Shown here one piece after another: positions 4,155-29,050 of a stretch of 64,000 nucleotides of DNA. Position 1 is the stretch's first letter. Each line of letters starts with the position of its first letter. The position numbers were made by a program, and so were the translations under genes. Source of the DNA: an uncultured Bacilli bacterium (GTDB taxonomy: Bacteria; Bacillota_I; Bacilli_A; RF39; UBA660); the NCBI GenBank assembly GCA_934096555.1, contig CAKOMD010000001.1:27474-91473 (forward strand), in the 5' to 3' direction. Under the pieces are notes generated by a model, which did no database searches, was not told the DNA's origin, and was given only the letters and a program-made list of their open reading frames with translations.

Positions 4155-4165
4155 TTATGTAACAA

Positions 4166-5416: not shown

Positions 5417-5512
5417 ATAAACTCTCCAATCATTATAACAAAATTATACTATATATTTTCATTATTAGCAAGGCAAGAAAAAAAGATATTTATAATTAGT
5501 AGTTATAAATAT

Positions 5513-5537
5513 CAATATTGACAAATAGATTGTCAAT
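5513..5537. promoter_or_regulatory. Perfect inverted repeat ATTGACAA-atag-ATTGTCAAT about 100 bp upstream of the deacetylase gene start; candidate operator overlapping a TTGACA -35-like hexamer
   Basis: The two 8-bp arms are exact reverse complements and sit in the 5' region of the minus-strand gene starting at 5416. Confidence 0.35.
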
Positions 5538-5612
5538 TTAAAATTATCCAAAGAATACATTTTTACATTTTTGTATACTATATTCTATATTTTTTATCAT
5601 CGAATAATATTT

Positions 5613-8076: not shown

Positions 8077-8836
8077 TATAAATCAATTCCTGTACATTTT
8101 TCTATTGAAGATACTTTTTCTATTAAATGATTTGTTACAAAATTTCTTACATAATCATTTTTAGGATGATTAAATATTTTATTTGGAACATCTATTTGCT
8201 CTATTTTACCATTATTCATTACCATTACTCTATCAGATAAAGAGAAAGCCTCCTCTTGATCATGAGTAATATATATCATTGTCGTTTTAAATTTCTTTTG
8301 AATATCTTTCAATTCTTTTCTTAACCCTAATCTATTATCAGCATCTAAAGCACTCATTGGTTCATCAAACAATATTATATCAGGATTTAAAGCCAATGTC
8401 CTTGCTATAGCCACTCTCTGCTGCTGTCCCCCTGATAATTCATGAGGATATTTTTTAATATGTTCTTCCATATTCACTACTTTTATCATTTCTAATGCTT
8501 GTTTTTTTGCCTCTTCCTTATCTTTTAATTTTAAATTTAACGCATACATAACATTATCTAAAACTGTCATATTAGGAAATAAAGCATAGTTTTGAAAGAC
8601 TATGCCCATTCCTCTTTTTGCTGGATCGACCTTTGTTATATTTTCTTTTTTCTTAAATATTTGTCCAGAAGTTGGTTTTTCTATTCCAATTAAAATTTTT
8701 AGCAATGTTGTTTTACCACATCCTGATGGTCCTATATTGATAAAAATTCTCCATCATTTACTTCAAAACTAATATTGTCTAAAACTATTTTTTTATTATA
8801 TACTTTAACTAAATTCTTTATTTCAAGATTAACCAT
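8076..8836 (-). pseudogene. ABC transporter ATP-binding protein interrupted by a -1 frameshift inside the Walker A region
   Basis: Minus-strand translation from the ATG at 8836 gives MVNLEIKNLVKVYNKKIVLDNISFEVNDGEFLSI and then a stop. The shifted frame continues GPSGCGKTTLLKILIGIEKP...LSGGQQQRVAIARTL...ILFDEPMSALD. The expected ATA-TTA-GGA reads ATATAGGA near 8733-8738, so one T is missing. Confidence 0.65.
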
Positions 8837-9806
8837 TTACTTCTCCCCATTTCTCAATTAATCTTTCTTTTACTTCTGTACTATCGATTCCTTCCATATT
8901 AGCATCTTTTAAATTTTCTGGATAATTCTTTATTTTATTTTCTTGATCTTTTAATATTTTATCTGGCATATAATTTTCCTTATCAAATCTACCATAATCT
9001 TTAATTAACCAATTAAACACTTTTACTACATCTTCGTTAGTTTCTCTTCCTTTAATAATACCACAAGAAGTTGTATTATAAGGAGAACCAGTATCTAATT
9101 CTATAATACTAAAATCATATCCCGCATTAATTGCTTCAACGCCTTGAGCAGTCATTCCCATCGCTATTGCTATTTCACCTTGTTTTAATAAATTTGTAGG
9201 GCCTGATCCTGATGTTGTAAATTCTCTTAAATTATTCTTTAATTTTTTAAAATACTCTATAGCGTTATCTTCACCCATAATATTTACTACATTTAGATAG
9301 AATGCATACCCAGTTCCAGATGTCTTTGGATCAGGCATTGCAATTAAATCTTTATATTCTGGTTTCAATAAATCTTCATATGTCTTTGGTACACTCAAAT
9401 TATGCTCTTCAAAATATTTATTATCTATAATCAAATTCATAGTATACTTAGTCCAAGTTAAATAATTAGTTGCTGTATTTACCCCATCTAGATAAAAACT
9501 TGTATCAAAACTTGATAAATTTGCAAAATTATCTTGAACTCCTTTTATATGAGCCGTTTCTAAATCTAACACTATATCTGCTTCAACCTTTGAACCTTCG
9601 TTTTTTATTTTAGCAGCACTATTTCCAGTTGCCATATATTGAACAACAACATTTAAATCTGGAAATTCCTCTTTAACCATTTCAATCAACTTTTGATTTC
9701 TTTCTTCTTCCATACTAGTATATATTACTACCTTGTTTTTACTTTCACAACCAGTTAATAATACTAATACAAAAAGCATTGCTATTAATAAAATTTTTTT
9801 CTTCAT
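8829..9806 (-). CDS. ABC transporter substrate-binding lipoprotein (family-1 SBP; Fe3+ / 2-aminoethylphosphonate / polyamine type)
   Basis: The protein starts with a lipoprotein signal, MKKKILLIAMLFVLVLLTGC. Its stop overlaps the ATPase start (ATGGTTAA). Confidence 0.65.
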   Translation of the reverse strand: MKKKILLIAMLFVLVLLTGCESKNKVVIYTSMEEERNQKLIEMVKEEFPDLNVVVQYMATGNSAAKIKNEGSKVEADIVLDLETAHIKGVQDNFANLSSFDTSFYLDGVNTATNYLTWTKYTMNLIIDNKYFEEHNLSVPKTYEDLLKPEYKDLIAMPDPKTSGTGYAFYLNVVNIMGEDNAIEYFKKLKNNLREFTTSGSGPTNLLKQGEIAIAMGMTAQGVEAINAGYDFSIIELDTGSPYNTTSCGIIKGRETNEDVVKVFNWLIKDYGRFDKENYMPDKILKDQENKIKNYPENLKDANMEGIDSTEVKERLIEKWGEVNG

Positions 9807-9979: not shown

Positions 9980-11350
9980 CTATCTTACTTTACACTTTAT
10001 TTTAGAACTATTATCTACAACTACCCTACCAATAGAGTTATAATATACATTATACTTTTCTATATCTGATAGTTTATAACAATTTCTACCATCATAAATT
10101 CTTGGAGTTTTCATTAATTCCTCATACTTGGATATGTCATATTCTTTAATCGTAGGCCATTCAGTCATAATAAGAACTGCCTCAGTATCCATAATAGTAC
10201 TATCAATATCAGTAAAATAACTAATACTTCCTACTGTTCCATCGTTCTCCAATTTATATGAAATTCTCTTTTTAAAGCTTTCGATAGATATTGGATCATA
10301 TGCTTTAATTACTGCACCAGCATCTAATAATAATTCAATATTATATATAGAAGGGGCTTCTCTCAAATCATCAGTACCAGGTTTAAAAGTTAAACCAAGT
10401 ACAGCTATATTTTTACCTTTTAGATTACCAAAATCACCTAATAACTTTTCATATAATTTAATTTTTTGACTTTCATTAACATCAATACAAGCCTTAACAG
10501 TTTTAAGTTCTGCACCAACTTGTGAACTCAAATAATGAAGAGCTTTAGTATCTTTAGGAAAACAGCTTCCGCCATAGCCTATACCAGCATTTAAAAATTT
10601 ATTGCCTATTCTAGAATCAAATCCCATTCCCTTCGATACATCTTCAATATTTGCGCCAAGCTTCTCACATAAGTTTGCAATTTCATTAATATAAGAAATT
10701 TTTAATGCCAAGAAATCATTAGAAGCATACTTAATCATTTCTGCACTTCTTCTATTTGTAGATAATAAAGGCACATTATATGGTTCTTTAGTTAATGGTT
10801 CATACATTTTTAGTAATGTCTCTTCTGCTTCCTTGCATTGAGTACCAATTACAATTCTTGAAGCATAAAGCGTATCTCTTACTGCAGTACCCTGAGCTAA
10901 AAACTCTGGATTACTAGCAACATTAATGTTAATTCCATCTCTAACATTATTTTTTAAGTATCTTTCAACTTCATCATTAGTACCAATAGGTACAGTAGAT
11001 TTAACAACTACAACTACATCTTTTTCTACTGATTTAGCAATTTGTTCACACACACCATAAACATAATCTAGATTAGCAGAACCATCCTTTCTTTCAGGAG
11101 TACCAACACCAATTATAATAACATCTGCATCCTTATATGCACTCTTGTAATCAGTAGTATAATTAAGCCTATTACTATTTTTTTGCATAAGTTCTTCCAA
11201 TCCTTGCTCATAAATAGGACTTATACCACTTCTCATCTTTTCTATTTTCTTTTCATCAATATCAACACAAGTAACATTATGTCCAATATTAGCTAATGCT
11301 ACACCTGTTACCAACCCTACATATCCTGTTCCAGCTACTGCTATTTTCAC
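9980..11350 (-). CDS. ugd: UDP-glucose 6-dehydrogenase
   Basis: KIAVAGTGYVGLVTGVALANIGHNVTCVDID...GGSCFPKD. GGAGG plus 8 nt precedes a GTG at 11350, whereas the longest ORF starts at 11368. Confidence 0.85.
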   Translation of the reverse strand: MKIAVAGTGYVGLVTGVALANIGHNVTCVDIDEKKIEKMRSGISPIYEQGLEELMQKNSNRLNYTTDYKSAYKDADVIIIGVGTPERKDGSANLDYVYGVCEQIAKSVEKDVVVVVKSTVPIGTNDEVERYLKNNVRDGININVASNPEFLAQGTAVRDTLYASRIVIGTQCKEAEETLLKMYEPLTKEPYNVPLLSTNRRSAEMIKYASNDFLALKISYINEIANLCEKLGANIEDVSKGMGFDSRIGNKFLNAGIGYGGSCFPKDTKALHYLSSQVGAELKTVKACIDVNESQKIKLYEKLLGDFGNLKGKNIAVLGLTFKPGTDDLREAPSIYNIELLLDAGAVIKAYDPISIESFKKRISYKLENDGTVGSISYFTDIDSTIMDTEAVLIMTEWPTIKEYDISKYEELMKTPRIYDGRNCYKLSDIEKYNVYYNSIGRVVVDNSSKIKCKVR

Positions 11351-11407
11351 TTCTATTACCTCCATCATGTATATACATCATAACATTATTTAGCCTTGAA
11401 ATCAACC

Positions 11408-12457
11408 CTAATTAATACTTAAATTACCACTAGTAGGATAAATTTGAATATAAGTATTACCATCATTAACAACTAATTCTTCACCACTAGATTTTATTTT
11501 ATAGATAGTTTTATCATTTTTACCACTCTTACTCCAAGTAATAGGTATACTATAACCATTAGATACATAGTATCCTTCTCCACTACCAACATTATCTATC
11601 TTTTGATAAGCACAGTACCCATGATCACAATAATTAGAATAATTAACACTATATATAATAATATTTTTAACCTTATATTGCTCTCCAGTTACTAAATCAA
11701 CATTCTTAGTATCATTCATACTTCTTAAATACACTTTATTTTCACTATCATAAGTATAATTAGAAGTTCTATAATCAGAATATTTAATACTAACATTATT
11801 AGCTACACTACTACCATCTAATTTAGATAAATCTATTTCTTCAGCACTATATTTAAGTAAACTCTTAGTTTCGGTAGTAGTCCTATACTTTCTATTATTT
11901 GTTCCTTCACCTAATAACTTGGTAGAAGTAAATAATTTATGCTCCCAAGCTCTATTTAAAGAAGTATCTCTAAATCCATATTGACCATCTACATCGACAT
12001 CATTAATACCTTCACTAGCTATTCTCTTTAAAGCATCTTCTGCTCCTCCAGCATGACCATATATAGCGTCATTTTCATATACATAGTCCAAATACTGTAT
12101 TCTCGCACTTCTAACAGAACCGATTTTATCTACATCTGTATCTTTAAATAAAGCCATCATCCTAGTAATGCCACCCTCAACCATAAGTTCATATACAATA
12201 TATGCCTTATCAAGACCTGCTTGAGGTAATGCCTCATTATGACAATTAATCATAATAGCATAAGGTCTAGTATCACTATCAACATCAATTATAGTAACTT
12301 TCTTTTCTTCTTTTACTTCCTCATTAACATTTTCTTTTTTATCAGGAATTTTTTTATTATTATCAATAACAAAATATACTCCTATACCAATACCACATAA
12401 CACAATAACACCAAGTATAATAAATAAAATTAGTTTGTTATTTTCTCTCTTTCTCAT
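11408..12457 (-). CDS. DUF3048-family (YerB-like) membrane-anchored protein
   Basis: There is an N-terminal TM helix, and PYAIMINCHNEALPQAGLDKAYIVYELMVEGGITRMMALF matches the conserved DUF3048 N-domain pattern. Confidence 0.5.
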   Translation of the reverse strand: MRKRENNKLILFIILGVIVLCGIGIGVYFVIDNNKKIPDKKENVNEEVKEEKKVTIIDVDSDTRPYAIMINCHNEALPQAGLDKAYIVYELMVEGGITRMMALFKDTDVDKIGSVRSARIQYLDYVYENDAIYGHAGGAEDALKRIASEGINDVDVDGQYGFRDTSLNRAWEHKLFTSTKLLGEGTNNRKYRTTTETKSLLKYSAEEIDLSKLDGSSVANNVSIKYSDYRTSNYTYDSENKVYLRSMNDTKNVDLVTGEQYKVKNIIIYSVNYSNYCDHGYCAYQKIDNVGSGEGYYVSNGYSIPITWSKSGKNDKTIYKIKSSGEELVVNDGNTYIQIYPTSGNLSIN

Positions 12458-12497
12458 AATACCTCCATAACAATATTTTATCTACTTTAAGTATATC

Positions 12498-12532
12498 ATA
12501 TAAAAGAAAAAATACAAACTAATTTTTGTATT
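12498..12532 (-). terminator. Rho-independent terminator downstream of the epimerase gene
   Basis: A 9-10 bp perfect stem (AAAATACAAA / TTTGTATTTT) is followed by a T-run on the minus strand. Confidence 0.5.
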
Positions 12533-13501
12533 TTATTCTTGACTATTATTTTTATACCAATTAATAAAGTTTTTAATTCCTTCTTTAAAACTAGTTTTAG
12601 GTTCATATCCTAATAGTTTTTTAGCTTTTGATATATCAGCATAAGTTCTATCAACATCACCAGGTTGCATAGGCAAAGTATCAATATCTGGAGTTACTCC
12701 AAGTACATCACCAATAACATTAATCATATCTTTCAAACTAATAGGATTATTACTACCCAAGTTAATTATTTCATAAACATTATCATTATTCATTACATAA
12801 TCACAAGATCTACATATACCATCTACTATATCATCAACATAAGTATAATCTCTGGAAGTACTACCATCACCATACATAGGAATAGATTTACCATCAAGCA
12901 TTAATCTTGTAAATTTATTAATTGCTAAATCAGGTCTTTGTTTAGGTCCATATACTGTAAAGAATCTAAGCATTATAATATTCATATCATTAAGTTTATG
13001 ATAAACATGAGCCATTACTTCATTAGCTTTTTTAGTAGCGGCATAAGGACTAATAGCATAATCAACTATCATATCTTCTCTAAAAGGAACTTCCTTACAA
13101 TTACCATAAACACTACTACTTGATGCCATAACCAAAGATTTTACATTATGTAGTTTAGCTTCTTCAAGAATATTTTGAGTGCCAATACCATTAACTTCTT
13201 GATATAATAAAGGATTTTCAATAGAAGGTCTAACTCCGGCCATCGCAGCAAGATGCATAACAACATCAATATGATTTTCATCAAATACTTTCTTTACGTC
13301 TTCTCTATTTCTAATATCTCCCCTATATAATTTATAATTATCATTATTAATAAAATCTTTAATATTCTTTTCTTTAATTTTAGGATCATAATAATCACAA
13401 AAATTATCAATAGTAACAACCTTATTTCCCTCTTTTAATAATCTTTCAGTAAGTGTAGAACCAATAAATCCAGCTCCGCCTGTAATAAAATACGTTTTCA
13501 T
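12533..13501 (-). CDS. NAD-dependent epimerase/dehydratase, most like UDP-glucuronate 4-epimerase
   Basis: MKTYFITGGAGFIGSTLTERLL...IDNFCDYYDPKIKEKN...YxxxK. It is adjacent to ugd. Confidence 0.7.
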   Translation of the reverse strand: MKTYFITGGAGFIGSTLTERLLKEGNKVVTIDNFCDYYDPKIKEKNIKDFINNDNYKLYRGDIRNREDVKKVFDENHIDVVMHLAAMAGVRPSIENPLLYQEVNGIGTQNILEEAKLHNVKSLVMASSSSVYGNCKEVPFREDMIVDYAISPYAATKKANEVMAHVYHKLNDMNIIMLRFFTVYGPKQRPDLAINKFTRLMLDGKSIPMYGDGSTSRDYTYVDDIVDGICRSCDYVMNNDNVYEIINLGSNNPISLKDMINVIGDVLGVTPDIDTLPMQPGDVDRTYADISKAKKLLGYEPKTSFKEGIKNFINWYKNNSQE

Positions 13502-14904
13502 TTTTTCTTTCTCCTTTTAGTATTGTTTTTTTTATCATTAGTAGTAAGATAATCTATCCAGCCATCGGTAGGAATGAAATTTTTATTATATTTTTCCTCA
13601 CTATTTATTCCATTTTGATCAATAAATTTATATTCCATTAATGAAGATATTTTAAATTTTTTTAATTTGTATCCCTCATTAATATATTTAATTTTTTTAG
13701 GATCAAACCCCATTATTTTGCAAATAGACCTATCCATATTTAATTGATTAAAGCTAGCTACTATTAGTCCGACTTCTTTATTCGATGGAATAAGTGGGCC
13801 TTCTTTTTCACCAGAAATAATCATATCCGCAACATTAAAAATAATTCTCTTTTTATTATTAGACAAAACACCATTTTTATCAGAATATAATAATATTTTA
13901 TTTATATCAAGTATAGTTCTCCATATTGTATCATTTCCATACCAACTTCCTTCTTGAAATCTTTCTTTATGAGTTAAAACCATCAATTTATAAAATACAC
14001 CATTTATAAGGTAAATTATTTTGCTATGTGTATAAGAATAATTCTTAGCAACAGAACGACAATATTTAATAAAACTACTTTCTGGATATTCATCACCATG
14101 ACTAGCAACACTACCATTCCTATGATGTGGTAAATACTCTTTTTTACTATTCACACCAACAAAGTTTTTCATAGAGGCAGTGATACCAGCTTTTCTATGA
14201 CATTTTGGCTTTGGAACATTAATTATAACATCAGCATCAAGAATATCTTTAGCAATTAAATATTCATGTTTTCCTTGACAATGATGACTATGCATATACT
14301 TTAAATTGTAATTTGTAATAGCATACTTTTTATAATATTCATCAGTTTCAACCAAAGAACTATTTTCTCCAATATCAACTACAGTACATTCAATTTTTGG
14401 ATTACTATTCTTTCTAAAATCTTTTAATTCAACCTTATAATTAAAATCATTATATTTTTTTATTGCCTCTTCTAAATTATATAACTTTATAACTTCAGCA
14501 AAATTGCATTCTTGTACAGGAGCATCGCCAACGATAATACTACCAGTACCATTTAAAGCAATTATTGTATAATCAATAATTGGTCTAATTACAGAAAAGT
14601 TAGTTATTAATGAATCGGTATTACCATCCAAAGATTCATTAATATGTTTCACTAAATTAGGTTTTATCACTACTTTATTATTTTTTTTAATAAAATCACC
14701 AAAAGGATTCCAATTTTTTTTACCAATATTCCCTTTATCAAGCCCCATTTGAATAAAAAGTCTACGAACACAATCGTATATATTAGAATCACTCTTAATA
14801 TCAATGTTTAATCCCTCTGGATACACTGTTGATGGATTAAAAAAATTATCATTACTATATTTATATATTTTTGTATCAACAACATATACATCGTTATTTT
14901 TCAT
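13498..14904 (-). CDS. DUF362-domain protein
   Basis: KVVIKPNLV...IVGDAPV resembles the DUF362 core. The start overlaps the epimerase stop (ATGA). Confidence 0.45.
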   Translation of the reverse strand: MKNNDVYVVDTKIYKYSNDNFFNPSTVYPEGLNIDIKSDSNIYDCVRRLFIQMGLDKGNIGKKNWNPFGDFIKKNNKVVIKPNLVKHINESLDGNTDSLITNFSVIRPIIDYTIIALNGTGSIIVGDAPVQECNFAEVIKLYNLEEAIKKYNDFNYKVELKDFRKNSNPKIECTVVDIGENSSLVETDEYYKKYAITNYNLKYMHSHHCQGKHEYLIAKDILDADVIINVPKPKCHRKAGITASMKNFVGVNSKKEYLPHHRNGSVASHGDEYPESSFIKYCRSVAKNYSYTHSKIIYLINGVFYKLMVLTHKERFQEGSWYGNDTIWRTILDINKILLYSDKNGVLSNNKKRIIFNVADMIISGEKEGPLIPSNKEVGLIVASFNQLNMDRSICKIMGFDPKKIKYINEGYKLKKFKISSLMEYKFIDQNGINSEEKYNKNFIPTDGWIDYLTTNDKKNNTKRRKKK

Positions 14905-16405
14905 TGCTATTTTTCCTTTCCCTAATCATTTTTATTATATCATTAAAATCATTTCTAAATAAGATAGTATTAACTAAAAGTACAAAGACTGTAATTACTA
15001 CAACAGTTATAACTGCCAAAATCACCCATTTAATATAAGTATCAATATTAATATTAATACAAAAAATTTGAAATAACATAACTATTACCATTTCAATAAA
15101 TGAAACAATTATTATTTTTAAAGAATTAATAAACTTAGTTTCTAATATTTTTGTAGAACCATAGTATATAAACCCAAATGTTCTAATTGGCATAGATATT
15201 AAAGTACCAATAGCAACTCCTACTAAACCATATTTTTTAACTAGTAACACAGAAATTATTATATTAACCACTGGTTCTATAATAGAAAAAATTTTAGTTT
15301 CCTTAAAATGACCCTTAGCATATACAATAGTTGAATATGGATATCTTATAACAAAGAAAAACTCAGCAAAAACTAAAATATAGGCAAAAGTAGGAATAAC
15401 ATAATTAGCATCAACAAAATTTTTAGTATAAACTGAAACAAAAGGAACTATCAATATTAAAGTTGAAGCAAGCAATATTGTTGTCAATGTATAAAAAATG
15501 AAAGAATACAAACTAAACTTATGTCTTACTTGTTCTGAATTCTGTGTAATTAGTGTTTTGCCAAAAAAAGCATCAATACCATTAGTTAAAGAGACAATCA
15601 AAGCACGAATACCATTCGTAATCAAAGCATAAACTGAATATATTGAAATATTTGTTAAATTACTAAATATAGTTAATAAAATAACATCTATACTAGATTG
15701 CACAGTTGATGCAATATGATGAATTAGTCCATCCCATTGTTTATCAAATTTATAAGTTGAATTATTGTTTATTTTATAATTATACTTTTTGTTAAAATAC
15801 ATTCGCATTATAATCGGTTTAATTACATATATAATTGAACCTGCTAACTTTACACATTGAATATTACAATTTAGTTTTATCAAAATAACAATAACAAGTA
15901 TGTTAACAACATAGCCAATTGAATTTATATTATCAATAAAATAATTTTTTTGATCGGATTTCAAAAACAAATTATACGTCATACCTAAATAATATTCAGA
16001 AAAATATCCTATAGCAATAATCAATATTAATGATACAGTATATAAATATGAATAACTACTATTTATAAACTTTGGATATATAACACAAAGAAACAAAATG
16101 TATGCTAAAAGAACATATGATATTCTTTTAAAAAATAAATTAGCTTTACCCAATATATTTCCAACCTCTTCTTTATTTTTTTCTACCAAAGGTTTATAAA
16201 GAGCATTTTTTATAACAGGTCCTATACCGCCTTCTAATAAAGAAATATAAGCTAAAAACTGTGCAATCGAAGAAATAAGGCCATTGACTTCAGAACCAAA
16301 TTTTTTTATTATCATTACAGGAACGATAAATCCATATACTATAGTAATTGCCTGATAAATAAACGAAGAAAGAATATTTTTAATTATAGTTTTTTTATTA
16401 TTCAT
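14894..16405 (-). CDS. wzx: Oligosaccharide flippase (Wzx, MOP superfamily)
   Basis: 503 aa with about 12-14 TM segments. The N-terminus has the typical polysaccharide-biosynthesis-protein pattern (FGSEVNGLISSIAQFLAYISLLEGGIGPVI). Confidence 0.75.
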   Translation of the reverse strand: MNNKKTIIKNILSSFIYQAITIVYGFIVPVMIIKKFGSEVNGLISSIAQFLAYISLLEGGIGPVIKNALYKPLVEKNKEEVGNILGKANLFFKRISYVLLAYILFLCVIYPKFINSSYSYLYTVSLILIIAIGYFSEYYLGMTYNLFLKSDQKNYFIDNINSIGYVVNILVIVILIKLNCNIQCVKLAGSIIYVIKPIIMRMYFNKKYNYKINNNSTYKFDKQWDGLIHHIASTVQSSIDVILLTIFSNLTNISIYSVYALITNGIRALIVSLTNGIDAFFGKTLITQNSEQVRHKFSLYSFIFYTLTTILLASTLILIVPFVSVYTKNFVDANYVIPTFAYILVFAEFFFVIRYPYSTIVYAKGHFKETKIFSIIEPVVNIIISVLLVKKYGLVGVAIGTLISMPIRTFGFIYYGSTKILETKFINSLKIIIVSFIEMVIVMLFQIFCININIDTYIKWVILAVITVVVITVFVLLVNTILFRNDFNDIIKMIRERKNSNEK

Positions 16406-16407
16406 AT

Positions 16408-17328
16408 CTAATCATTCCTTTTAGAAGGTAATTTAATTAAATCACCTATTTTTTTATCCCATTCTAATGGTTTAAACTCCTCATATCCATTTCCAGGATA
16501 AAAAGTCATTTCACCAAAATATAATTTCCCATTAATTTCATACCAATCAACTCGTACAAAAGGAATATTATCGGACAAAATCTTTGAAAACTTTAACATT
16601 AAGTTATAGTTAAAAGGCTTTTTAATTTCTTTATTTGATGAAGGATAATGTCTTTCGAAAGGCAACCTGTTCCAATCTAAGTCAAAAAAAGTAACCTTTA
16701 AACCATCTTTATACCGCTCACTACATGTAAAAGATAACTTAGGCTCTCCATCAAAACACATAAACTTATAATCAATTAACTCCTTATTTCCATTATCTTC
16801 CATATATTTTTCGATTATTATTTTAGGCTTAACTTTCTTATACGGCCATTCCCTACCACAATAATAATAATTTCTTTTCAAAGAAGCATTGATTTTTTTT
16901 CTTGCAGAAACTATATCAAAATTACTTTTATCTCTACATATTGCTAACCCACCAGAATCATGATTACATTTAATTACAAATTGATTAGGTAATTTATCAA
17001 AATCAATATCATCAAAATTATCATATACTCCAATTAAAGGTATTAGATATTCTTCACCAATTTTTTCTTTTATATACTCTCTAACTTCATACTTGTCTAC
17101 CATCTTAGTATACTCTGGATTTCTATCATAGAGTTTTAACCATTGTAACTTTTCATTAAAAGTTTGTGGATTTTTCAAGTTTAATTTATATCCCATTTTA
17201 TATTTAAAATATATCTTCAAATATGTTTTATCAGATAATATTTTTGAAAGTTTACTATTCATTACTCTTAACACAAGTTTTGAAGGATTAAGTAAATAAT
17301 ACTTTAACTTTAACAATTTATTTTTCAT
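16408..17328 (-). CDS. TupA-like ATP-grasp amidoligase (teichuronopeptide-type)
   Basis: KNPQTFNEKLQWLKLYDRNPEYTKMVDKYEVREYI is the hallmark N-terminal motif of the ATPgrasp_TupA family. It has a paralog at 18384-19298. Confidence 0.6.
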   Translation of the reverse strand: MKNKLLKLKYYLLNPSKLVLRVMNSKLSKILSDKTYLKIYFKYKMGYKLNLKNPQTFNEKLQWLKLYDRNPEYTKMVDKYEVREYIKEKIGEEYLIPLIGVYDNFDDIDFDKLPNQFVIKCNHDSGGLAICRDKSNFDIVSARKKINASLKRNYYYCGREWPYKKVKPKIIIEKYMEDNGNKELIDYKFMCFDGEPKLSFTCSERYKDGLKVTFFDLDWNRLPFERHYPSSNKEIKKPFNYNLMLKFSKILSDNIPFVRVDWYEINGKLYFGEMTFYPGNGYEEFKPLEWDKKIGDLIKLPSKRND

Positions 17329-18412
17329 TTTTTACACCTACAAAATAATCATAATATTTTTTATATATCGTATTGGCATCTAATTTTTTTCTTATTTCTA
17401 TAGCATTTTTTTCTATATTTCTTCTGACAGTTTCATTTTTTATTAAGAATAATATTTTTTCTGATAAAGTTCTAACATCATCAACCGGTATCAATAATCC
17501 ATTCTTACCATCGTTAATTAATTCAGAAGGACCAAATTTACAATCAGTAGAAATGCAAGCAGTCCCAGCAGCCATCGCTTCAATTAAAGCATTCGGCATT
17601 CCCTCATATCTAGAACTCAATACAAATATTTTTGAATTTGCAACATCATTAATTGCATCACTTTTAGCACCACACAATTGTACATAATCATGAAGGCCCG
17701 CATTATCAATTAAATTTTGCAAAGTATCCCTATCAGAACCTTCGCCAAAGATTTTAAGAATATAAGAAGAATTCTTTTTATTTACTATGGAAAATGCCTT
17801 AATTAATGTATCAAATCCTTTTTGACTATTAAGTCTACCCATTGCAGTAATAACATTTTCTTTATTATGTACATTAATATCATAGACCTTTTTATTACTA
17901 ATAGCATTAGAAATTACAATGGAATTCTTTTGAACTTTAATAGGAAATGTTTTTTTTATTCCTTCAGTTTGAAAAATAAAACCATCACATTTTTTAGCAG
18001 CATAATATGTAATATGTTTTTTCAAATTGCTTAATTCAAGCACATTACATCTTTCAGATCCTATTACTTTGCAATTGCAAGGTTTTGAAAAATATGCATA
18101 CAATTCAGTTTGGTAAAACATTGCAAAAACTAAATTAGCATTTAGTTTTTTAAGATTTTTTTTACAAAACCTATATCTATTAATTATTGCCATAACCCTA
18201 TTGCTTGAATTTTTTTCAAAATTGATTACATTAACTCTATCATCTAATTCATATGCAGAATCATCATTATCAAACTTCAATATTGTAACTTTATCATTTG
18301 TATTTTCAACAATCCAATTGCAAAAAGAAACAGCAACTCTCTCTGCACCCCCAAAGCCTAATCTAGACATAATTAGTACTATATTATTTTTCATTTGTAT
18401 TACCCTCACCAA
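17318..18412 (-). CDS. GT4 glycosyltransferase
   Basis: The C-terminus carries EGMPNALIEAMAAGTACISTDCKFGPSELINDGKNGLL, which is the GT4 EX7E region. Confidence 0.8.
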   Translation of the reverse strand: MVRVIQMKNNIVLIMSRLGFGGAERVAVSFCNWIVENTNDKVTILKFDNDDSAYELDDRVNVINFEKNSSNRVMAIINRYRFCKKNLKKLNANLVFAMFYQTELYAYFSKPCNCKVIGSERCNVLELSNLKKHITYYAAKKCDGFIFQTEGIKKTFPIKVQKNSIVISNAISNKKVYDINVHNKENVITAMGRLNSQKGFDTLIKAFSIVNKKNSSYILKIFGEGSDRDTLQNLIDNAGLHDYVQLCGAKSDAINDVANSKIFVLSSRYEGMPNALIEAMAAGTACISTDCKFGPSELINDGKNGLLIPVDDVRTLSEKILFLIKNETVRRNIEKNAIEIRKKLDANTIYKKYYDYFVGVKNEK

Positions 18413-19298
18413 GTTTTAAGTAATTACCTAATGTAATTTCATAATCTTTTGGTTCAAATTTAGTAAAACCAGCAAAATGGAAAAAAGTTAATTCTCCTAA
18501 ATAAATCTTATTGTTACACAAATAAAAATCAACTCTCAAATGTGGAATATTTTTGCTTAAAATACTAGCTATTTCTTTCATTTTATCAAATTGTTTAGGT
18601 TTGTCAAAAATCACATTTGATGCATTATAAATACATTTCAAATCTAATTTGTTGAAATCAGAATCATAAAAGTCATTAAACCTATTCTTTTCTTTGTCAC
18701 CATAGCAAACAGACACTAATTTAGGAATACCATTAAAGCAAAAAATGTTATACTCCATTAAATCACTTTTGTCTTTATTTTCAATATATTTTTCAATGAC
18801 AATTCTTGGTTTAACATTTTTATAAGGCCACTCTCTATGTACTTTGTAATAATTTCTCTTCATGAATTTATTGATTTTCTTTTTTGCTGCCTTCATATTT
18901 AAAGTATTTTTATCCTTACAAATAACTAATCCTCCAGAATCGTGTGTACACTTAATTACAAATTGATTCGGTAATTTATCAAAATCAATGTCATTAAAGT
19001 TATCATATACACCAACAAGTGGAATTAAATATTGCTTTCCTATTTTATTTTCTATATAATTTCTAACTTCATATTTATCAACCATTTCAGTATACTCTGG
19101 ATTTCTATTATATAATTTTAACCATTGAAGTTTCTCACTAAGTAGTTTAGGATTTTTTAAATCTAATTTTTTTCCAATCAAAAGTTTATATTTCCATTTC
19201 AGATATAGCTTATCAGGGAGAAAGAAAAAGAAATTTTTATTCATCAAACAAATTAAAGCCTCCCTTGGATGAGTTAAATATTTAATTATTTTTTTCAT
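18384..19298 (-). CDS. TupA-like ATP-grasp amidoligase, paralog
   Basis: KNPKLLSEKLQWLKLYNRNPEYTEMVDKYEVRNYI. It is roughly 55-60% identical by eye to the ORF at 16408-17328. Confidence 0.6.
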   Translation of the reverse strand: MKKIIKYLTHPREALICLMNKNFFFFLPDKLYLKWKYKLLIGKKLDLKNPKLLSEKLQWLKLYNRNPEYTEMVDKYEVRNYIENKIGKQYLIPLVGVYDNFNDIDFDKLPNQFVIKCTHDSGGLVICKDKNTLNMKAAKKKINKFMKRNYYKVHREWPYKNVKPRIVIEKYIENKDKSDLMEYNIFCFNGIPKLVSVCYGDKEKNRFNDFYDSDFNKLDLKCIYNASNVIFDKPKQFDKMKEIASILSKNIPHLRVDFYLCNNKIYLGELTFFHFAGFTKFEPKDYEITLGNYLKLGEGNTNEK

Positions 19299-20373
19299 TT
19301 TTATACACTTCCTTCATAAATTCAAACCATTTACTAACTATCTTATCACAAGAATAATTATTCATATTTTTTTTAGCAGACATTGCTATTTTTTTACACA
19401 TTTTATCATTTTCAATAACTTTATACATTGCAGATACAAGTTCATTCTTATCATTGCTTTTAACAAGTAATCCATTTATATTATTTTTTATTAATTCACG
19501 TGGTCCCCCGCAAGGACAATCTGTTGAAATGCACGGCACACCGACTGCCATAGCCTCCATCAAAGCATTAGGCATTCCTTCATATTTAGAAGATAAAATA
19601 AAACATTTTTTTTCTTTTAAGACATTTTCAATATCATCTACATTACCACATAACTTAACATTATCATCAAGTTTATTATTCTTTATATACATATCAAGTT
19701 CATTTTTTAAATTTCCATCACCATAAATAAGTAATTTATAATTTGGATATTTCTTAATAACATCTTTGAAGCTTTCTATTAAAAGCACTTGATTTTTTTG
19801 CTCGTTCAATCTGCCAACATTAATAAATTCTTTACTTTCATTTCCTATATATTTAGTTTTTAAAAATCTATCATCAACCGGATTAGCAATAACTATAGAT
19901 CTATCTTGAATTTTTTTGCAGAAATAATCGTGCGCTTCTTCTGTCTGAAAAACAAAGCCATTAGCTCTTTTATATAAAATTTTCATTATAATTCTACTTT
20001 TAAAAGATGCATATTCCATCTTCGGATCATTCCTATCAGAAATGATTACAGGAGTTTTAATAAATGGTTTCAATAAAAGTAATCTATAACTCGGTTCAGG
20101 TAAAAAACATAAAATAATATCAGGATCAATATCTTTTATATAGTCTTTTAATCTCATTAAATATATAATGTTCTTTACTAATGGATTCTTATTACCATCA
20201 AAATTTTTCAAATTAAAGAGTTTAATACTTTTATTAAGACTATATTCTATTTTTTCGTCAGTAGTAGTAATAATAGTAACTTCATTTTTTTCTACTAGTT
20301 TATTAGATAATGTAGCAACAACTCTCTCCGCTCCACCTTTTCTCAAATTACCTATATAAAATAATATTTTCAT
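19282..20373 (-). CDS. GT4 glycosyltransferase
   Basis: EGMPNALMEAMAVGVPCISTDCPCGGPRELIKNNINGLLV. Confidence 0.8.
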   Translation of the reverse strand: MKILFYIGNLRKGGAERVVATLSNKLVEKNEVTIITTTDEKIEYSLNKSIKLFNLKNFDGNKNPLVKNIIYLMRLKDYIKDIDPDIILCFLPEPSYRLLLLKPFIKTPVIISDRNDPKMEYASFKSRIIMKILYKRANGFVFQTEEAHDYFCKKIQDRSIVIANPVDDRFLKTKYIGNESKEFINVGRLNEQKNQVLLIESFKDVIKKYPNYKLLIYGDGNLKNELDMYIKNNKLDDNVKLCGNVDDIENVLKEKKCFILSSKYEGMPNALMEAMAVGVPCISTDCPCGGPRELIKNNINGLLVKSNDKNELVSAMYKVIENDKMCKKIAMSAKKNMNNYSCDKIVSKWFEFMKEVYKNEKNN

Positions 20374-20381
20374 ACTTCCTC

Positions 20382-21440
20382 CTAAAATAATGTATAATTA
20401 ACATAAACAGAATTTGTAAATATCTGATATATATAAAACAAAAATAATGAAATATAAAATATTGGATACATGAATTTACGATATTTTAAATCCAAAGCCT
20501 CCAAATTATTTGGAATTAAAATTATAAATGAATAAGTAAAATATAAAACTATTCTTGCAACCAACCCTTGAGTAGTTGAAAGAATTTGAAATGGTAAAGC
20601 TAATAATAACATACCAACAAAGTATTTATTTTCATTTTTATTTATATCAAATTTTTTATTTATAAAGCATACACCAACTATTATTAAAAATATCAATAAA
20701 AGCATTGTATAGCCACTACCACTAGTATCACGATAGTCAAGGTATTGACTGTAAATTAATTCAGTTATAATATTAAGAATTGGATTTTTAATTATAAATA
20801 AAACTATGCATAAACTCATAAAGCGAAATATTTTATTAGTAGTAAATTTAATATGTTTAAATACTGGTAAAATTAAAAATACCAATGCTGTTTTATGAAA
20901 TAAACTAGCAATCATAACCATTGCAATATACCAAAGTAAACTTTTTTTATCCTTAGCTAACAATAGTGGAAAAGCACACAATAAAATTGATATAGCTAAA
21001 CACTGTCTTAATGTGCAAGTATAATAGATAAAATAATTAAAAGTTATAAATAAGAAAATACTTGCAAAATAATTTCTAGAATAATTTTTAATAAAGTTAT
21101 ATATACCTATCATAGAAAGAATTGAAATAACAAATACGTAAAATCTAAAATCGTAAAAAATAAAGCTTATAAATTTTGTGAACATTTTAAATCCCAACTC
21201 AAAATCGTAATGAAAATATAAATATTCTATAGTACTATTTTTAGTGGCCACAAAAAATTTATAATAATTAATCATGTCAAGTCCAACTTTAGGACCTCGT
21301 AATCCTAAAAATAAAGTTAAAATAATAATTATAGTTAAAAGGTATTGCCTATTGTTTTTGATATTAACTCCACATATTTTAAATATTAAGGATAATAAAG
21401 TCAAAGAAAGCAATAATATTATATATTCCAATACAATCAC
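20382..21440 (-). CDS. EpsG-family / Wzy-like polysaccharide polymerase (polytopic membrane protein)
   Basis: 352 aa with about 10 TM segments. LRGPKVGLDMINYYKFF is an EpsG-like motif. Confidence 0.55.
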   Translation of the reverse strand: MIVLEYIILLLSLTLLSLIFKICGVNIKNNRQYLLTIIIILTLFLGLRGPKVGLDMINYYKFFVATKNSTIEYLYFHYDFELGFKMFTKFISFIFYDFRFYVFVISILSMIGIYNFIKNYSRNYFASIFLFITFNYFIYYTCTLRQCLAISILLCAFPLLLAKDKKSLLWYIAMVMIASLFHKTALVFLILPVFKHIKFTTNKIFRFMSLCIVLFIIKNPILNIITELIYSQYLDYRDTSGSGYTMLLLIFLIIVGVCFINKKFDINKNENKYFVGMLLLALPFQILSTTQGLVARIVLYFTYSFIILIPNNLEALDLKYRKFMYPIFYISLFLFYIYQIFTNSVYVNYTLF

Positions 21441-21455
21441 CTCCCTATTGTAATA

Positions 21456-22490
21456 TTAGTTGTAATATAAATCTAATTCTTTTTTATATTTTTTTATATC
21501 GTTAATTTTGGTTGAATCATCATCTGCATTATTTGACATTTCCTGTAGTTCGCTGTCACTAGTAATTAATTCTACAATATAATTAATAAGTTCAGCATCA
21601 TTATCACTTAGAAAGCCATTAAATCCTTGCTTAATAAGTTCCTTCATACCATCAGTTGGCGTAGACACGATTGGTTTGCCCAAACATAGTGCCTCCAAAG
21701 CGCACATTGGTGTTCCCTCATATATCGAAGTTAAAAGCATGATTTTAGAGTTTTTAATATATACATACGGATTTGCTTGAAATCCCAAAAGAAAAATATT
21801 ATTATTTAATTTGTTTTCTTTAATGTACTCATTGAGTTCATCATACATTGGTCCATTTCCTACTATTGCTAGTTTTGCATTAGGAACCTTATCAGTAACA
21901 GATGCAAAAATACTCAAAAGTCTTTTAGGATTTTTTAATTCCACCAATCTTCCAACAAAAATAGCATCATATTTTTCGTCTATATCATTCTCTTTACTAT
22001 TATGAATAATCTTTTTTTTATCAACTACATTAATAAGAACACTACTTTTAGAACATACTTGCTTATAAAATTTATACTGATTTAAACTGCTATCAGAAAC
22101 CCAAAAGATATGTTCTACTTTTTTTACTGCAGCAAGAAAAAGTAATGATTTTAAAGATAATTTTCTCATATCTAGGCTGTTGCCATGAACATGTGAAATA
22201 ATCTTACACTTCTTAGAAAATAAACTAGCATAAATAGTAGCCTTTATATCATGTGCGTGTATAATATCGGGTTTAAATTCCATAATAGCCTTTTTTATAC
22301 TAGAATAACTTAATTTATCAAGAGGATAAAACTTTATATTTTTTTCTACCAATTTATCTTTTATTTTGCCATTTGGAGAGCAATAAATCATATCAATATT
22401 CTCATCATTTTTATACATATCAATAATTTGACATACCACGTTTTCAGCCCCAGAAAAAGAATCAGTAGCCAACAAATGCATAACTTTCAT
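21456..22490 (-). CDS. GT4 glycosyltransferase
   Basis: MKVMHLLATDSFSGAENVV...EGTPMCALEALCLGKPIVSTPTDG. Confidence 0.75.
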   Translation of the reverse strand: MKVMHLLATDSFSGAENVVCQIIDMYKNDENIDMIYCSPNGKIKDKLVEKNIKFYPLDKLSYSSIKKAIMEFKPDIIHAHDIKATIYASLFSKKCKIISHVHGNSLDMRKLSLKSLLFLAAVKKVEHIFWVSDSSLNQYKFYKQVCSKSSVLINVVDKKKIIHNSKENDIDEKYDAIFVGRLVELKNPKRLLSIFASVTDKVPNAKLAIVGNGPMYDELNEYIKENKLNNNIFLLGFQANPYVYIKNSKIMLLTSIYEGTPMCALEALCLGKPIVSTPTDGMKELIKQGFNGFLSDNDAELINYIVELITSDSELQEMSNNADDDSTKINDIKKYKKELDLYYN

Positions 22491-22496
22491 ATTTAT

Positions 22497-23606
22497 TTAC
22501 CTCTCATATATTTTAATAATTTCATCCAAAACAGAATCAAGCATATATTTATTTACTTCTTCCTTATTAGTTTGAATAAATTTTTCTGCCTTTTTCTTAT
22601 TTTTATATATTTTTTCTATTTTTTGAGCAAATTCATCAGCTCTATAGCTATCAACTAAATATCCATTTTTTCCATTCTTTATTAAATCTCTATTTCCCCT
22701 GCAATTAGTAGCAACTATTGGAAGGCCTACATACATTGATTCAATTATATTTATAGGAAGTCCTTCTCTTTTACTAGAAGAAACAGCCATATTTGAAATT
22801 CTCAAAAGTTGTGGAATATCTTTCCTATATCCTAAAAAACGCACATTATCAGCAATTTCATTTTGCTTTGCATATTCTTGAAGTTTGCCTTGTAATAAAT
22901 CATATCCAGGTAATAATAGTACAATATTTGATATTTTTTCTTTTAATATTTTAATAGTATTTAATAATAGTATTTGATTCTTATTATTGTTAATTTCTCC
23001 CGGAAAAATCAAAACAAAATTACTATCATCAATATTTAGTTCCTTACGCAATTTCTTTTTTTCACTTGCAGACATTTTAACATCAAACTTTTCTCTGCTT
23101 ATACCAATACCATGTACCTTATAAACCTTTGATTTCATCTTTTTCTTAGCGGTATCATAATCTTCATCATTTATAGTAATAATTGAATCAGTATATCTAG
23201 ATAAATATTTTTCCATTGGATAATAAAGTAACCAATTAATCAAAGGTGCGCCTTTATAAAAATGAAATCCATGTGCAGTATAAACTATTTTTGATTTAAA
23301 ATTTTTTATTCTACTAGCAGCCAATCTTGGAATTGCAGCACCAAAAGGTGTATGACAACTAATAAGTTCATAATCATTTTCAATCAATATTTTTTTAATT
23401 GTTTTATATGATCTAATTATATCCTTTATATTTAAACTTCTCGTAAAACAAACATCAAATTTTTTATCACAATAAGGAATTTCAATTCCTTGATCCTTTG
23501 ATGCAACATGAACTTCATATCCGTTTTCCTTAAAATATTTTAATTGAGGTATTAAAAACTTTATAAAAAACGAATCTAAATTTGCAGTAAATAAAACTTT
23601 TTTCAT
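22497..23606 (-). CDS. GT4 glycosyltransferase
   Basis: REGLPINIIESMYVGLPIVATNCRGNRDLIKNGKNGYLV. Confidence 0.75.
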   Translation of the reverse strand: MKKVLFTANLDSFFIKFLIPQLKYFKENGYEVHVASKDQGIEIPYCDKKFDVCFTRSLNIKDIIRSYKTIKKILIENDYELISCHTPFGAAIPRLAASRIKNFKSKIVYTAHGFHFYKGAPLINWLLYYPMEKYLSRYTDSIITINDEDYDTAKKKMKSKVYKVHGIGISREKFDVKMSASEKKKLRKELNIDDSNFVLIFPGEINNNKNQILLLNTIKILKEKISNIVLLLPGYDLLQGKLQEYAKQNEIADNVRFLGYRKDIPQLLRISNMAVSSSKREGLPINIIESMYVGLPIVATNCRGNRDLIKNGKNGYLVDSYRADEFAQKIEKIYKNKKKAEKFIQTNKEEVNKYMLDSVLDEIIKIYER

Positions 23607-23643
23607 TATAGCACTACTCCCTTATATATTACATTTAACCATT

Positions 23644-25095
23644 CTATTTATTTAAATGCCCTTTTATCTTTTCACTGGCAGTTTCCACAGATTTTTTATC
23701 TTGTTTCATTACATATAACTTTAAGTTTGGATATGTATAAGTTTCTTTAGTATACAAGTCCGTACCAATTAAATTCTGACTTTCTATGCTCCAGCCTCGC
23801 ATATCATTAAGTTGCATCTTTATAAATCTATTAATACTTTTAGTTTCCATATTTGTTGAAAAACTGTTTCCAACACTATCTAATATTTGTGAAAAATTAG
23901 TAACTAAAGTTGTCGAAGATGTAACTTTCTTAATAATTGCTGTAAGTACTTTCTGCTGATCTTTAACCCTCTGTACATCGCCATCTTTAAATGCATATCG
24001 CTCTCTTGCAAACATAAGCGCATGAAAACCATCCATATGATTATTTCCTTTTTTGTAGCAGATATCAGGCCTTCCATTAGCACAAAAGCTATAATCCGAA
24101 TAAACATCTACACCTTCTATTGCATCAATAACTCCTTCTATCGTAGAAAAATTAACCTTTACATAATAGTTAATATCAGTATCAAGTAAATTCTCTATAG
24201 TCTTAACAGACTCCTCAATACCATAATATCCAGCATGAGTAAGTTTATCATAGGCATCTTCGCCAAATGAAGGCAAATTAACATAATAATCTCTTGGTAT
24301 TGAAGTAAGTAATACTTTTCTATTAACAGGATCAACTGTAATAATCATATTAACGTCAGTATTAGTAACATTATCAATACTACCATAAGCATCCCCACCT
24401 GCTACATATATATTAAATGGTTTCTTAGTAATATCAACTACTTTTACTATATCCGTCTTTTCTATTTTAACATATACTTTATATATTTCCTTTAATTTAA
24501 GTTTCATATCAGCTAAATCAGTATCAAGTAAATTCTTCGTAGATTCATTAATTAATACAGCATCTATCTTATTATCTTGTAAATCTTCAAATAATTCCAC
24601 AACATTCTTATACTCTTTAGAAATATTCTTTATCTTTTTATTTAATTCATTACTAGCTTTAGTACTATTCTTAGAACTATATATGCCTATAGACTTACCA
24701 TTTAAATCTTTAATATCTTTATATTTAGAATTTTCTAAAGTCATAACATAATATACTTCTTTTTGAAGTAAATCTTTACTAACTAATCCAACAAAGTCCA
24801 TAGTATCATTCAAATACTTAATACCGACACCAAATATAGCACCAAAAAGTACTAAAAACATACAAGAACTAACCTTAAATTTATTCTTTATTTTCTTATG
24901 AAAGGAAGTAAAGAATAAATATAAATATAATAATCCAAATACTATATAAAAGATAATTAAATATTTAAATGGTATCATATCAAGTACATACAACATAATA
25001 CCAAATACTATAAATATAATCGTTGATATTATAGCTATTGTTCTAAAAAACCAAATACCCTTACCACTCTTTCTTTTCCTATTATTTTTCTTCAC
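23644..25095 (-). CDS. LytR-CpsA-Psr (LCP) family glycopolymer-peptidoglycan ligase
   Basis: There is an N-terminal TM helix. MIITVDPVNRKVLLTSIPRDYYV...YGIEESVKTIENLLDTDINYYVKVNFSTIEGVIDAIEGVDV matches the LCP core. Confidence 0.8.
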   Translation of the reverse strand: MKKNNRKRKSGKGIWFFRTIAIISTIIFIVFGIMLYVLDMIPFKYLIIFYIVFGLLYLYLFFTSFHKKIKNKFKVSSCMFLVLFGAIFGVGIKYLNDTMDFVGLVSKDLLQKEVYYVMTLENSKYKDIKDLNGKSIGIYSSKNSTKASNELNKKIKNISKEYKNVVELFEDLQDNKIDAVLINESTKNLLDTDLADMKLKLKEIYKVYVKIEKTDIVKVVDITKKPFNIYVAGGDAYGSIDNVTNTDVNMIITVDPVNRKVLLTSIPRDYYVNLPSFGEDAYDKLTHAGYYGIEESVKTIENLLDTDINYYVKVNFSTIEGVIDAIEGVDVYSDYSFCANGRPDICYKKGNNHMDGFHALMFARERYAFKDGDVQRVKDQQKVLTAIIKKVTSSTTLVTNFSQILDSVGNSFSTNMETKSINRFIKMQLNDMRGWSIESQNLIGTDLYTKETYTYPNLKLYVMKQDKKSVETASEKIKGHLNK

Positions 25096-28979: not shown

Positions 28980-29050
28980 AATATTCCCCTCAAAACAGCC
29001 ATTATTATATAAAAAAAGACATTAAATGTCAAATTTAATATCTTTTTCAA

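Follow-up and report, generated by a model that had tools for sequence, protein, structure and literature searches.

TupA-type amidating enzymes have been demonstrated once, in Campylobacter jejuni; the gene layout to which they belong is common in polysaccharide loci of gut Firmicutes, where the chemistry is unstudied. In C. jejuni HS:2, Cj1438 consists of a family 2 glycosyltransferase (GT2), a linker and a TupA-like ATP-grasp ligase, and this C-terminal domain uses ATP to amidate the C6 carboxylate of glucuronic acid (GlcA), the GT2 accepting only the amidated GlcA (PMC11800379). The founding member of the family, TupA of the Gram-positive Bacillus (Halalkalibacterium) halodurans C-125, gives Pfam family PF14305 its name and belongs to an acidic, GlcA-containing wall polymer; teichuronopeptide combines poly-gamma-L-glutamate with polyglucuronic acid (PMC8153356). 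In the literature searched, no statement was found on the reaction catalysed by the B. halodurans enzyme. Here we analysed a stretch of 64,000 nucleotides from an uncultured Bacilli bacterium (contig CAKOMD010000001.1; the window), in which a minus-strand locus of about 15 kb at positions 9980-25095 carries two TupA-like ligase genes, TupA1 and TupA2. This locus is likely to be one operon for a Wzx/Wzy-dependent, peptidoglycan-attached heteropolysaccharide, in which the C6 carboxylates of uronic acids in the repeat unit would be converted to amides. Sequence comparison strongly supports the predicted functions of the UDP-glucose 6-dehydrogenase (UGDH), the epimerase, the ligases, the family 4 glycosyltransferases (GT4s), the Wzy polymerase and the LytR-CpsA-Psr (LCP) transferase. 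Loci of this kind are known and very widespread, and the family annotation that already exists leads to the same prediction. An earlier note on this DNA had also proposed an amidated uronic acid polymer; the core of that proposal holds in the uronic acid supply and the TupA-type carboxylate amidation in two modules, and its details were loose.

Both ligases were found to be bona fide members of PF14305, with the profile aligned end to end (positions 1-241 of 241) at 257.8 bits for TupA1 and 228.4 bits for TupA2 against a cut-off of 25. The motif NPxTFNEKLQWLKLY, which had been attributed to both, is exact only in TupA1 (NPQTFNEKLQWLKLY), whereas TupA2 has NPKLLSEKLQWLKLY; the motifs FVIKCTHDSGG, IEKY, RVDFY and GELTF are present in TupA2. 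Residues K120, H123-D-S-G-G, E173, R259, D261 and E273, all invariant in family alignments, are kept in TupA1 and TupA2 and may by analogy take part in binding ATP and magnesium. An AlphaFold2 model of TupA1 (predicted local distance difference test, pLDDT, 92) folds like the carboxylate-amine ligases of the ATP-grasp type, its top Foldseek matches being PurK, D-Ala-D-Ala ligases, LysX/ArgX and RimK (probability 1.00). A sequence search of the PDB with TupA1 returned nothing useful and no solved structure of the TupA family. Since the family-invariant residues are kept and the model has the ATP-grasp fold, both ligases look competent and are probably active. That they would amidate the carboxylate of a uronic acid is suggested by analogy with Cj1438.

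The two ligases are 52% identical overall, but identity ranges from 83-87% in residues 61-120 down to 30-47% in residues 181-300, a region in which conservation among TupA1-like homologues is 0.72-0.80, and TupA2 appears to be specifically different in its C-terminal half. As the divergence sits mainly in the C-terminal halves, the ligases most likely differ in acceptor sugar and/or amine. At the DNA level they are 77% identical over 300 nt, and in a tree of 99 TupA open reading frames (ORFs) from related loci together with the two of the window they fall into different clades, and the same is true of other loci with more than one copy. We therefore rejected gene conversion and a recent tandem duplication as the origin of the pair, and the two modules, previously described as a duplication, are old and divergent paralogues. 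The paired glycosyltransferases GT4c and GT4d are 35% identical.

As the earlier note had it, each ligase gene is paired with a GT4 gene, which lies directly upstream of it, and the genes of these modules overlap by 11-29 nt; the stop of GT4c overlaps the start of TupA2 by 17 nt. To place this arrangement among relatives, 80 related loci with 105 TupA ORFs were surveyed. A GT4 gene was directly upstream of 32 of the 105 TupA genes and a GT2 gene upstream of 7, the commonest upstream gene being GT4c-like. GT4c itself best resembles the alpha-1,4 transferases PglH/PglJ in NCBIfam, followed more weakly by TviE and TuaC, all below cut-off. More than one TupA copy occurs in 21/80 loci, with two copies in 17 and three in 4 (e.g., Tetragenococcus muriaticus, L064, and loci L022 and L074). 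Among the relatives examined are natural fusions in which TupA forms the C-terminal part behind a GT4 (P0362, 69% identical to TupA1, P0402 and P0408), a GT2 (P0400), a GT8 (P0419), a TOD1/MUCI70 glycosyltransferase-like domain (P0384) or Wzy_C (P0374). The gene overlaps, the upstream glycosyltransferases in relatives, the multiple copies and the natural fusions together indicate that a glycosyltransferase and a TupA ligase form a functional module, which many Firmicutes genomes carry in one to three tandem copies. The fusions have the architecture of Cj1438, and by that analogy the paired GT4 could either add the uronic acid or act next and need the amide, and the sequence is compatible with both. 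The family is large, with 11,633 TupA relatives at E<=1e-3 among 1.84 billion cluster representatives. In many homologues of about 450 aa (P0002, P0004, P0039, P0056 and others), the C-terminal half of the ATP-grasp domain is duplicated internally.

The supply of uronic acids is indicated by two genes at the lower end of the locus. UGDH carries its three UDPG_MGDP_dh domains with E-values of 5e-62, 9e-37 and 3e-29, scores above the cut-off of TIGR03026 and keeps the active-site motif GGSCFPKD with the catalytic Cys. Its best equivalog-type match was TuaD with 500 bits, below the cut-off of 700, followed by AglM with 366, as compared to 185 for UDP-ManNAc dehydrogenase and 56 for TviB; the protein thus appears to fit UDP-glucose dehydrogenases far better than UDP-HexNAc dehydrogenases, in line with its first annotation. 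The second protein, a short-chain dehydrogenase/reductase (SDR), was compared with solved structures and scored 285 bits against 5u4q from Klebsiella pneumoniae, 198 against the UDP-GlcA 4-epimerase of Bacillus cereus (BcUGAepi), 161 against MoeE5 and 158-162 against WbgU/WbpP, whereas E. coli GalE reached about 119 and aligned over the N-terminal half only. In a HMMER alignment, S128, S129, S130, T182 and R189 of the SDR correspond to Thr126, Ser127, Ser128, Thr178 and Arg185 of BcUGAepi, with a conservative exchange of Thr126 to Ser, and the catalytic Y153 and K157 correspond to Tyr149 and Lys153. In BcUGAepi, Thr126, Ser127, Ser128 and Thr178 hold the substrate carboxylate and Arg185 the carboxylate of UDP-galacturonic acid (UDP-GalA) (PMC7984243, PMC12338863). 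The SDR does not have the Glu at position 128 (BcUGAepi numbering) that marks decarboxylases. Orthologues with 74-79% identity stand beside TupA genes in 20/80 of the surveyed loci, and within 10 kb a GlaKP-like epimerase was counted in 46/80 and a UGDH in 38/80, many of the loci being truncated. A tblastn search of plasmids with the epimerase met only automatic 'GDP-mannose 4,6-dehydratase' labels. By its scores and residues, the SDR groups, as before, with UDP-GlcA 4-epimerases and not with GalE.

Flippase, polymerase and LCP transferase lie together in the same operon, the flippase by transitive assignment. The LCP protein aligned over its full length with NCBIfam LCP_trans_Cps2A at 315 bits, below the equivalog cut-off, and exceeded the cut-off of TIGR00350. 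The weaker assignment concerns a 503-aa membrane protein, which had no match in NCBIfam or in Pfam (even at E<=10), whose top 120 homologues had no precomputed Pfam match and whose profile found nothing useful in the PDB. Its tblastn relatives in related loci (23-31% identity) do match PF01943 Polysacc_synt, one of them (L060) above the cut-off with 39.7 bits, and its slot is held by PF01943/PF13440 flippases in loci L082 and L084. Because its distant relatives match PF01943 and canonical flippases occupy the same slot, we read this protein as a divergent Wzx. The window further encodes a class A penicillin-binding protein (PBP), a Mur ligase and MreC besides the LCP enzyme, from which it follows that the host makes peptidoglycan.

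The closest public relatives of the window are Clostridium sp. CAG:302 (L001) and the gut metagenome-assembled genome UMGS1185, labelled 'uncultured Tenericutes' (L002); both are uncultured, low-GC, Bacilli-like gut organisms. The window itself has 25% GC, its genes lie nearly all on the minus strand, and Rfam and tRNA scans of it were empty. The gene order of the operon (Table 1) is identical in L001, L002 and L004, with the LCP gene in the same position in all three. From GT4c to the epimerase, the genes overlap by 17, 29 (or 11), 11, 11 and 4 nt, with one gap of 2 nt; the alternative figure reflects the start of GT4d, for which the ATG at 18394 is the more probable codon, as the gene has been called with a length of 358 aa in contig L081, which is 99% identical. 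No terminator-like site was found inside the operon, in a scan for promoters and terminators that is uninformative in DNA of 25% GC. L001 and L005 cease to be colinear with the window at the DNA level at 9981-9991, a few bases from the stop codon of UGDH, and the lower boundary at 9980 is hence right. For the same reason, a downstream cluster with an ATP-binding cassette (ABC) importer and LicD was excluded from the locus. The ORFs that the earlier note had named are all present where it had placed them on the minus strand. Of its bounds, 9980-20373, the lower end stands and the upper end has to be moved, since the EpsG/Wzy, LCP and two GT4 genes at 20382-25095 belong to the locus as well.

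Table 1. Genes of the locus, from the first gene of the operon to the last of the conserved block, with positions in the window.
Gene product	Position	Strand	Evidence and remarks
LCP transferase, Cps2A-like, predicted to transfer glycopolymer to peptidoglycan; first gene of the operon	23644..25095	-	PF03816 E 7e-39
GT4a, predicted retaining glycosyltransferase	22497..23606	-	Glyco_trans_4_2 and Glycos_transf_1, E 2e-40; no equivalog assignment
GT4b, predicted glycosyltransferase	21456..22490	-	E 8e-36
EpsG-family multi-pass membrane protein, presumed Wzy-type repeat-unit polymerase	20382..21440	-	PF14897 E 7e-42, above cut-off
GT4c, predicted glycosyltransferase, module 1 with TupA2	19282..20373	-	Glycos_transf_1 E 5e-41
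TupA2, TupA-like ATP-grasp amidoligase	18384..19298	-	PF14305 E 1.2e-67, full length
GT4d, predicted glycosyltransferase, module 2 with TupA1	17318..18412	-	Glycos_transf_1 E 3e-40
TupA1, TupA-like ATP-grasp amidoligase	16408..17328	-	PF14305 E 1.2e-76
503-aa multi-pass membrane protein, read as divergent Wzx/MOP-type flippase	14894..16405	-	No Pfam match; assigned through relatives
DUF362 protein, 468 aa, LarA-like fold in the model	13498..14904	-	PF04015 E 3.5e-23
SDR, predicted UDP-glucuronate 4-epimerase	12533..13501	-	Epimerase/GDP_Man_Dehyd domains
DUF3048 protein with N-terminal membrane anchor	11408..12457	-	PF11258 and PF17479; hydrophobic N-terminus
UGDH, last gene of the conserved block	9980..11368	-	Three UDPG_MGDP_dh domains

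In the pathway that we propose, UGDH would convert UDP-glucose to UDP-GlcA and the SDR would equilibrate UDP-GlcA with UDP-GalA, two steps for which family membership and the conservation of key residues give good support. The four retaining GT4s would assemble a repeat unit of about four to five sugars on an undecaprenyl-phosphate-linked primer at the cytoplasmic face, and TupA2 and TupA1, whose translation is in each case coupled to that of a GT4, would activate a sugar carboxylate as acyl phosphate and couple an amine to it. By analogy with Cj1438, this amidation would take place on the lipid-linked intermediate, interleaved with glycosyl transfer. Going by family roles, the divergent Wzx would then flip the unit, the EpsG-type Wzy polymerise it and the Cps2A-like LCP protein transfer the polymer to peptidoglycan. 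The order of the steps, the acceptor sugars and the action on a lipid-linked intermediate are what we infer from these comparisons. The weakest step is the amine, most probably an abundant cellular amino acid; because the locus holds no genes for amine supply, an abundant cellular amine, at its simplest an amino acid, was taken as the default.

Several observations weigh against this scheme. Among the window ORFs scanned, there was no priming phosphoglycosyltransferase of the Bac_transf or WecA/TagO type, which is presumably encoded elsewhere (in loci L083 and L086 a Bac_transf gene stands beside GT4-TupA), and the donor sugars of the GT4s are unreadable from sequence, the NCBIfam matches being below threshold. 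The conserved DUF362 and DUF3048 genes have no place in the scheme. We take the best structural match of the SDR, 5u4q, to be a K. pneumoniae Uge/GlaKP-type GalA epimerase, whereas its depositors say 'dTDP-glucose dehydratase', and a literature search on 5U4Q gave nothing relevant. The locus also carries no counterpart of the pyridoxal phosphate (PLP) enzymes and phosphatase that supply the amine in C. jejuni. Moreover, the sole characterised TupA-like ligase, a remote relative, uses phosphorylated amino alcohols and not amino acids (PMC11800379), and CfmP of Klebsiella, a member of the family, acts independently of surface polysaccharides (PMC13419641).

The first of the alternatives leaves the pathway as it is and replaces the proteinogenic amino acid by ethanolamine phosphate, serinol phosphate, 2-aminoethylphosphonate, a polyamine or another small amine, and we regard it as possible, if distinctly less probable than an amino acid. 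Ethanolamine phosphate or serinol phosphate is taken by the one biochemically defined TupA-like ligase (PMC11800379). In this strain, an ABC importer is encoded directly downstream of the locus whose binding protein is best like putative 2-aminoethylphosphonate binders (PhnS2, 155 bits), and the conserved partner, DUF362, could serve to produce or process a co-substrate of an unusual kind. However, the PhnS2 score is far below the cut-off of 393, colinearity with the closest relatives does not extend to the ABC cluster, and the locus is without a PLP aminotransferase or haloacid dehalogenase (HAD) phosphatase like Cj1436/Cj1437/Cj1435. Amino-acid amides are besides the commoner natural decoration of uronic acids in bacterial glycans.

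It is unlikely, though less so than the readings that follow, that the two ligases serve a single uronic acid, either by building a dipeptide in sequence or by adding alternative amines in a non-stoichiometric mix, so that the repeat unit would not carry two marked sugars. Such an arrangement would fit the tandem TupA-TupA fusions (P0361, P0363) and the adjacent TupA genes with no glycosyltransferase between them (L026, L031, L011), and one GlcA of C. jejuni bears either of two amines (PMC11800379). Here and in most multi-copy loci, however, each ligase has a GT4 of its own, which fits one ligase per glycosylation step better.

That the SDR is instead a general 4-epimerase of UDP-hexoses and UDP-N-acetylhexosamines, and the polymer one with GlcA only or without GalA, seems quite improbable. 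The 'extended substrate specificity' of GlaKP, in the title of reference 22 of PMC7984243, and the 201 bits of the NCBIfam GalE model would speak for it, but that model has a cut-off of 262, structures of the UGAepi type score far above those of GalE, the carboxylate-binding residues and the equivalent of Arg185 are kept, and inheritance of the gene is closely tied to that of UGDH and TupA. By scores and residues, then, the SDR does not look like a UDP-Glc/GalNAc 4-epimerase without uronic acid specificity, a possibility raised before. We give almost no credence to the TupA proteins being mere passengers of the glycan operon that modify a protein or other non-glycan substrate, which would agree with the fimbriae-associated, polysaccharide-independent action of TupA-like CfmP in Klebsiella (PMC13419641) and with type IV pilus genes elsewhere in the window, as the ligase genes overlap GT4 genes inside the operon, glycosyltransferase fusions occur in many relatives, TupA co-occurs with UDP-GlcA genes and the pilus genes are about 25 kb away. 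That the repeat unit has two different amidated residues, as the earlier note had suggested, is plausible and one of several readings.

A point that is new here is the DUF362 subfamily, which is usually next to TupA genes. In a sample of five DUF362 homologues with 39-46% identity (L082-L086), picked solely on DUF362 similarity, four (L082, L083, L084 and L086) directly follow a GT4-TupA pair, and the fifth (L085) lies between CapK_C and Asn-synthase-type genes, which possibly encode carboxylate-amidating enzymes too. Among the 80 loci selected by TupA, DUF362 was present in 14 and is hence an accessory rather than obligate partner; a tie between DUF362 and one TupA clade was considered and showed no clear pattern. 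An AlphaFold2 model of the protein (pLDDT 94) had LarA-type nickel-pincer racemases/epimerases as all of its top 18 PDB matches in Foldseek (E 2e-5, with a TM-score of only about 0.3). DUF362 and the N-terminal family of LarA share Pfam clan CL0471 (PMC11770544), and at the sequence level neither the single sequence nor the profile matched any LarA structure in the PDB. The protein might act in the synthesis or stereo-inversion of a co-substrate, or in further processing of the amidated or activated uronic acid. More speculatively, and on balance doubtfully, DUF362 would be a dedicated partner of enzymes that amidate glycan carboxylates, [GT-TupA(-DUF362)]n a modular code and GT4d/TupA2 a strain-level antigenic switch; if this were true, such cassettes would write different non-sugar substituents onto successive uronic acids in the wall polysaccharides of gut Firmicutes. 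The DUF3048 gene was found in L001, L002, L004, L005 and L076, and its product is probably extracytoplasmic.

Comparison with L001 revealed that the operon is not equally conserved along its length. While the flanking genes are 95-99% identical at the protein level and TupA1, Wzx, DUF362 and the epimerase 98-99%, identity falls to 67% for GT4d, 75% for TupA2, 81% for GT4c and 84% for GT4b. L005 shares the epimerase, DUF3048 and UGDH at 94-97% protein identity and has a different flippase and no DUF362. Such a pattern suggests that serotype-like recombination has made a mosaic of the central part of the operon.

Other elements of the window were noted alongside. Downstream, at 871-9806 on the minus strand, lies a second cluster of surface-glycan genes, which shows no colinearity with the closest relatives; its products are the ABC importer with the PhnS2-like binder (below cut-off), a winged helix-turn-helix nucleotidyltransferase, a polysaccharide deacetylase, LicD, an O-antigen-ligase-like membrane protein and a GT2, and may be a pathway for decoration with scavenged phospho- or phosphono-amines. 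Upstream of the LCP gene, positions 25212-30085 (minus strand) encode a protein of 1255 aa, whose sole match is a weak one to Metallophos_2, and an NAGPA-type phosphodiester glycosidase; near the 3' end of the large gene, just upstream of the LCP gene, L001 has about 1.2 kb that is without a match in the window. The genes of type IV pilus or type II secretion system type at 43034-45123 (minus strand) include a T2SSF platform protein and a prepilin peptidase A24, with a close relative labelled 'Tenericutes'. Finally, 57192-61264 (minus strand) is likely a diversity-generating retroelement. It comprises a 514-aa ORF without Pfam match (59720-61264), small ORFs at 58566-58928 and 58231-58569, and a reverse transcriptase at 57192-58262 on the minus strand (RVT_1, E 3e-21; generic RT in PADLOC). 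A repeat of about 100 nt occurs at 59789-59896, in the 3' end of the 514-aa ORF, and at 59467-59574 in the downstream spacer, and at 13 of its 14 mismatches the copy in the spacer has an adenine, which is the classic signature of template and variable repeats.

Amidation would make uronic acid residues, which are anionic, neutral, zwitterionic or cationic instead, and thereby alter surface charge, antigenicity and recognition by phages or the immune system. With two separable GT4-ligase modules, one of which varies by strain, this compact operon from a common uncultured lineage of the human gut (CAG:302 type) offers a tractable system for finding the rules of amine and acceptor specificity, for predicting glycan decoration from sequence and for the role of DUF362.

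Among the known systems, the earlier comparison with teichuronopeptide does not hold. No polyglutamate synthetase of the PgsB/CapB type is encoded within 9980-25095, and the only gene of the Mur ligase family in the window (37978-39348) sits between those of a PBP and topoisomerase IV subunit A. In place of polyglucuronate, the four GT4s and Wzy point to a heteropolysaccharide repeat unit exported and attached by Wzx, Wzy and LCP. In its framework the locus resembles streptococcal Wzy-type cps loci and tua of Bacillus subtilis, with a Cps2A-like LCP gene first, GT4s, Wzx, Wzy and a TuaD-like UGDH; unlike these, it is without the CpsB/C/D tyrosine-kinase module and without the CpsE or TuaA priming transferase. 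We know of no TupA ligases in tua or classical cps loci. In Gram-negative bacteria, TupA-family genes occur inside Wzx/Wzy loci as WemR of Proteus mirabilis and orf2 of the capsular polysaccharide locus of Vibrio alginolyticus, both of which would, on prediction only, attach amino acids to the polysaccharide (PMC13419641, PMC11382117). O-antigens are ligated to lipid A-core, in contrast to the LCP-mediated transfer to peptidoglycan expected here, and tandem GT4-TupA modules were not found described for O-antigen or capsule systems in the literature searched, nor did a search combining amidoligase gene clusters, galacturonic acid and amino acids find a paper.

The best mechanistic analogue is Cj1438 of C. 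jejuni and not the teichuronopeptide of Bacillus. The two systems differ in several respects. Gram-negative C. jejuni has its ligase fused to a GT2 and a capsule that depends on an ABC transporter, and its serinol phosphate or ethanolamine phosphate is made by dedicated PLP enzymes and later dephosphorylated. In the locus described here, two free-standing ligases are each paired with a GT4, the pathway is of the Wzx/Wzy/LCP type in a cell of Gram-positive type, and there is an additional predicted UDP-GlcA 4-epimerase and DUF362 but no gene for amine supply. What the HS:2 system (with Cj1432/Cj1434/Cj1435) and this locus have in common is a TupA-like ligase coupled to a glycosyltransferase and a UDP-GlcA precursor, and in C. 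jejuni the uronic acid is amidated once it is already in the growing glycan, interleaved with glycosyl transfer.

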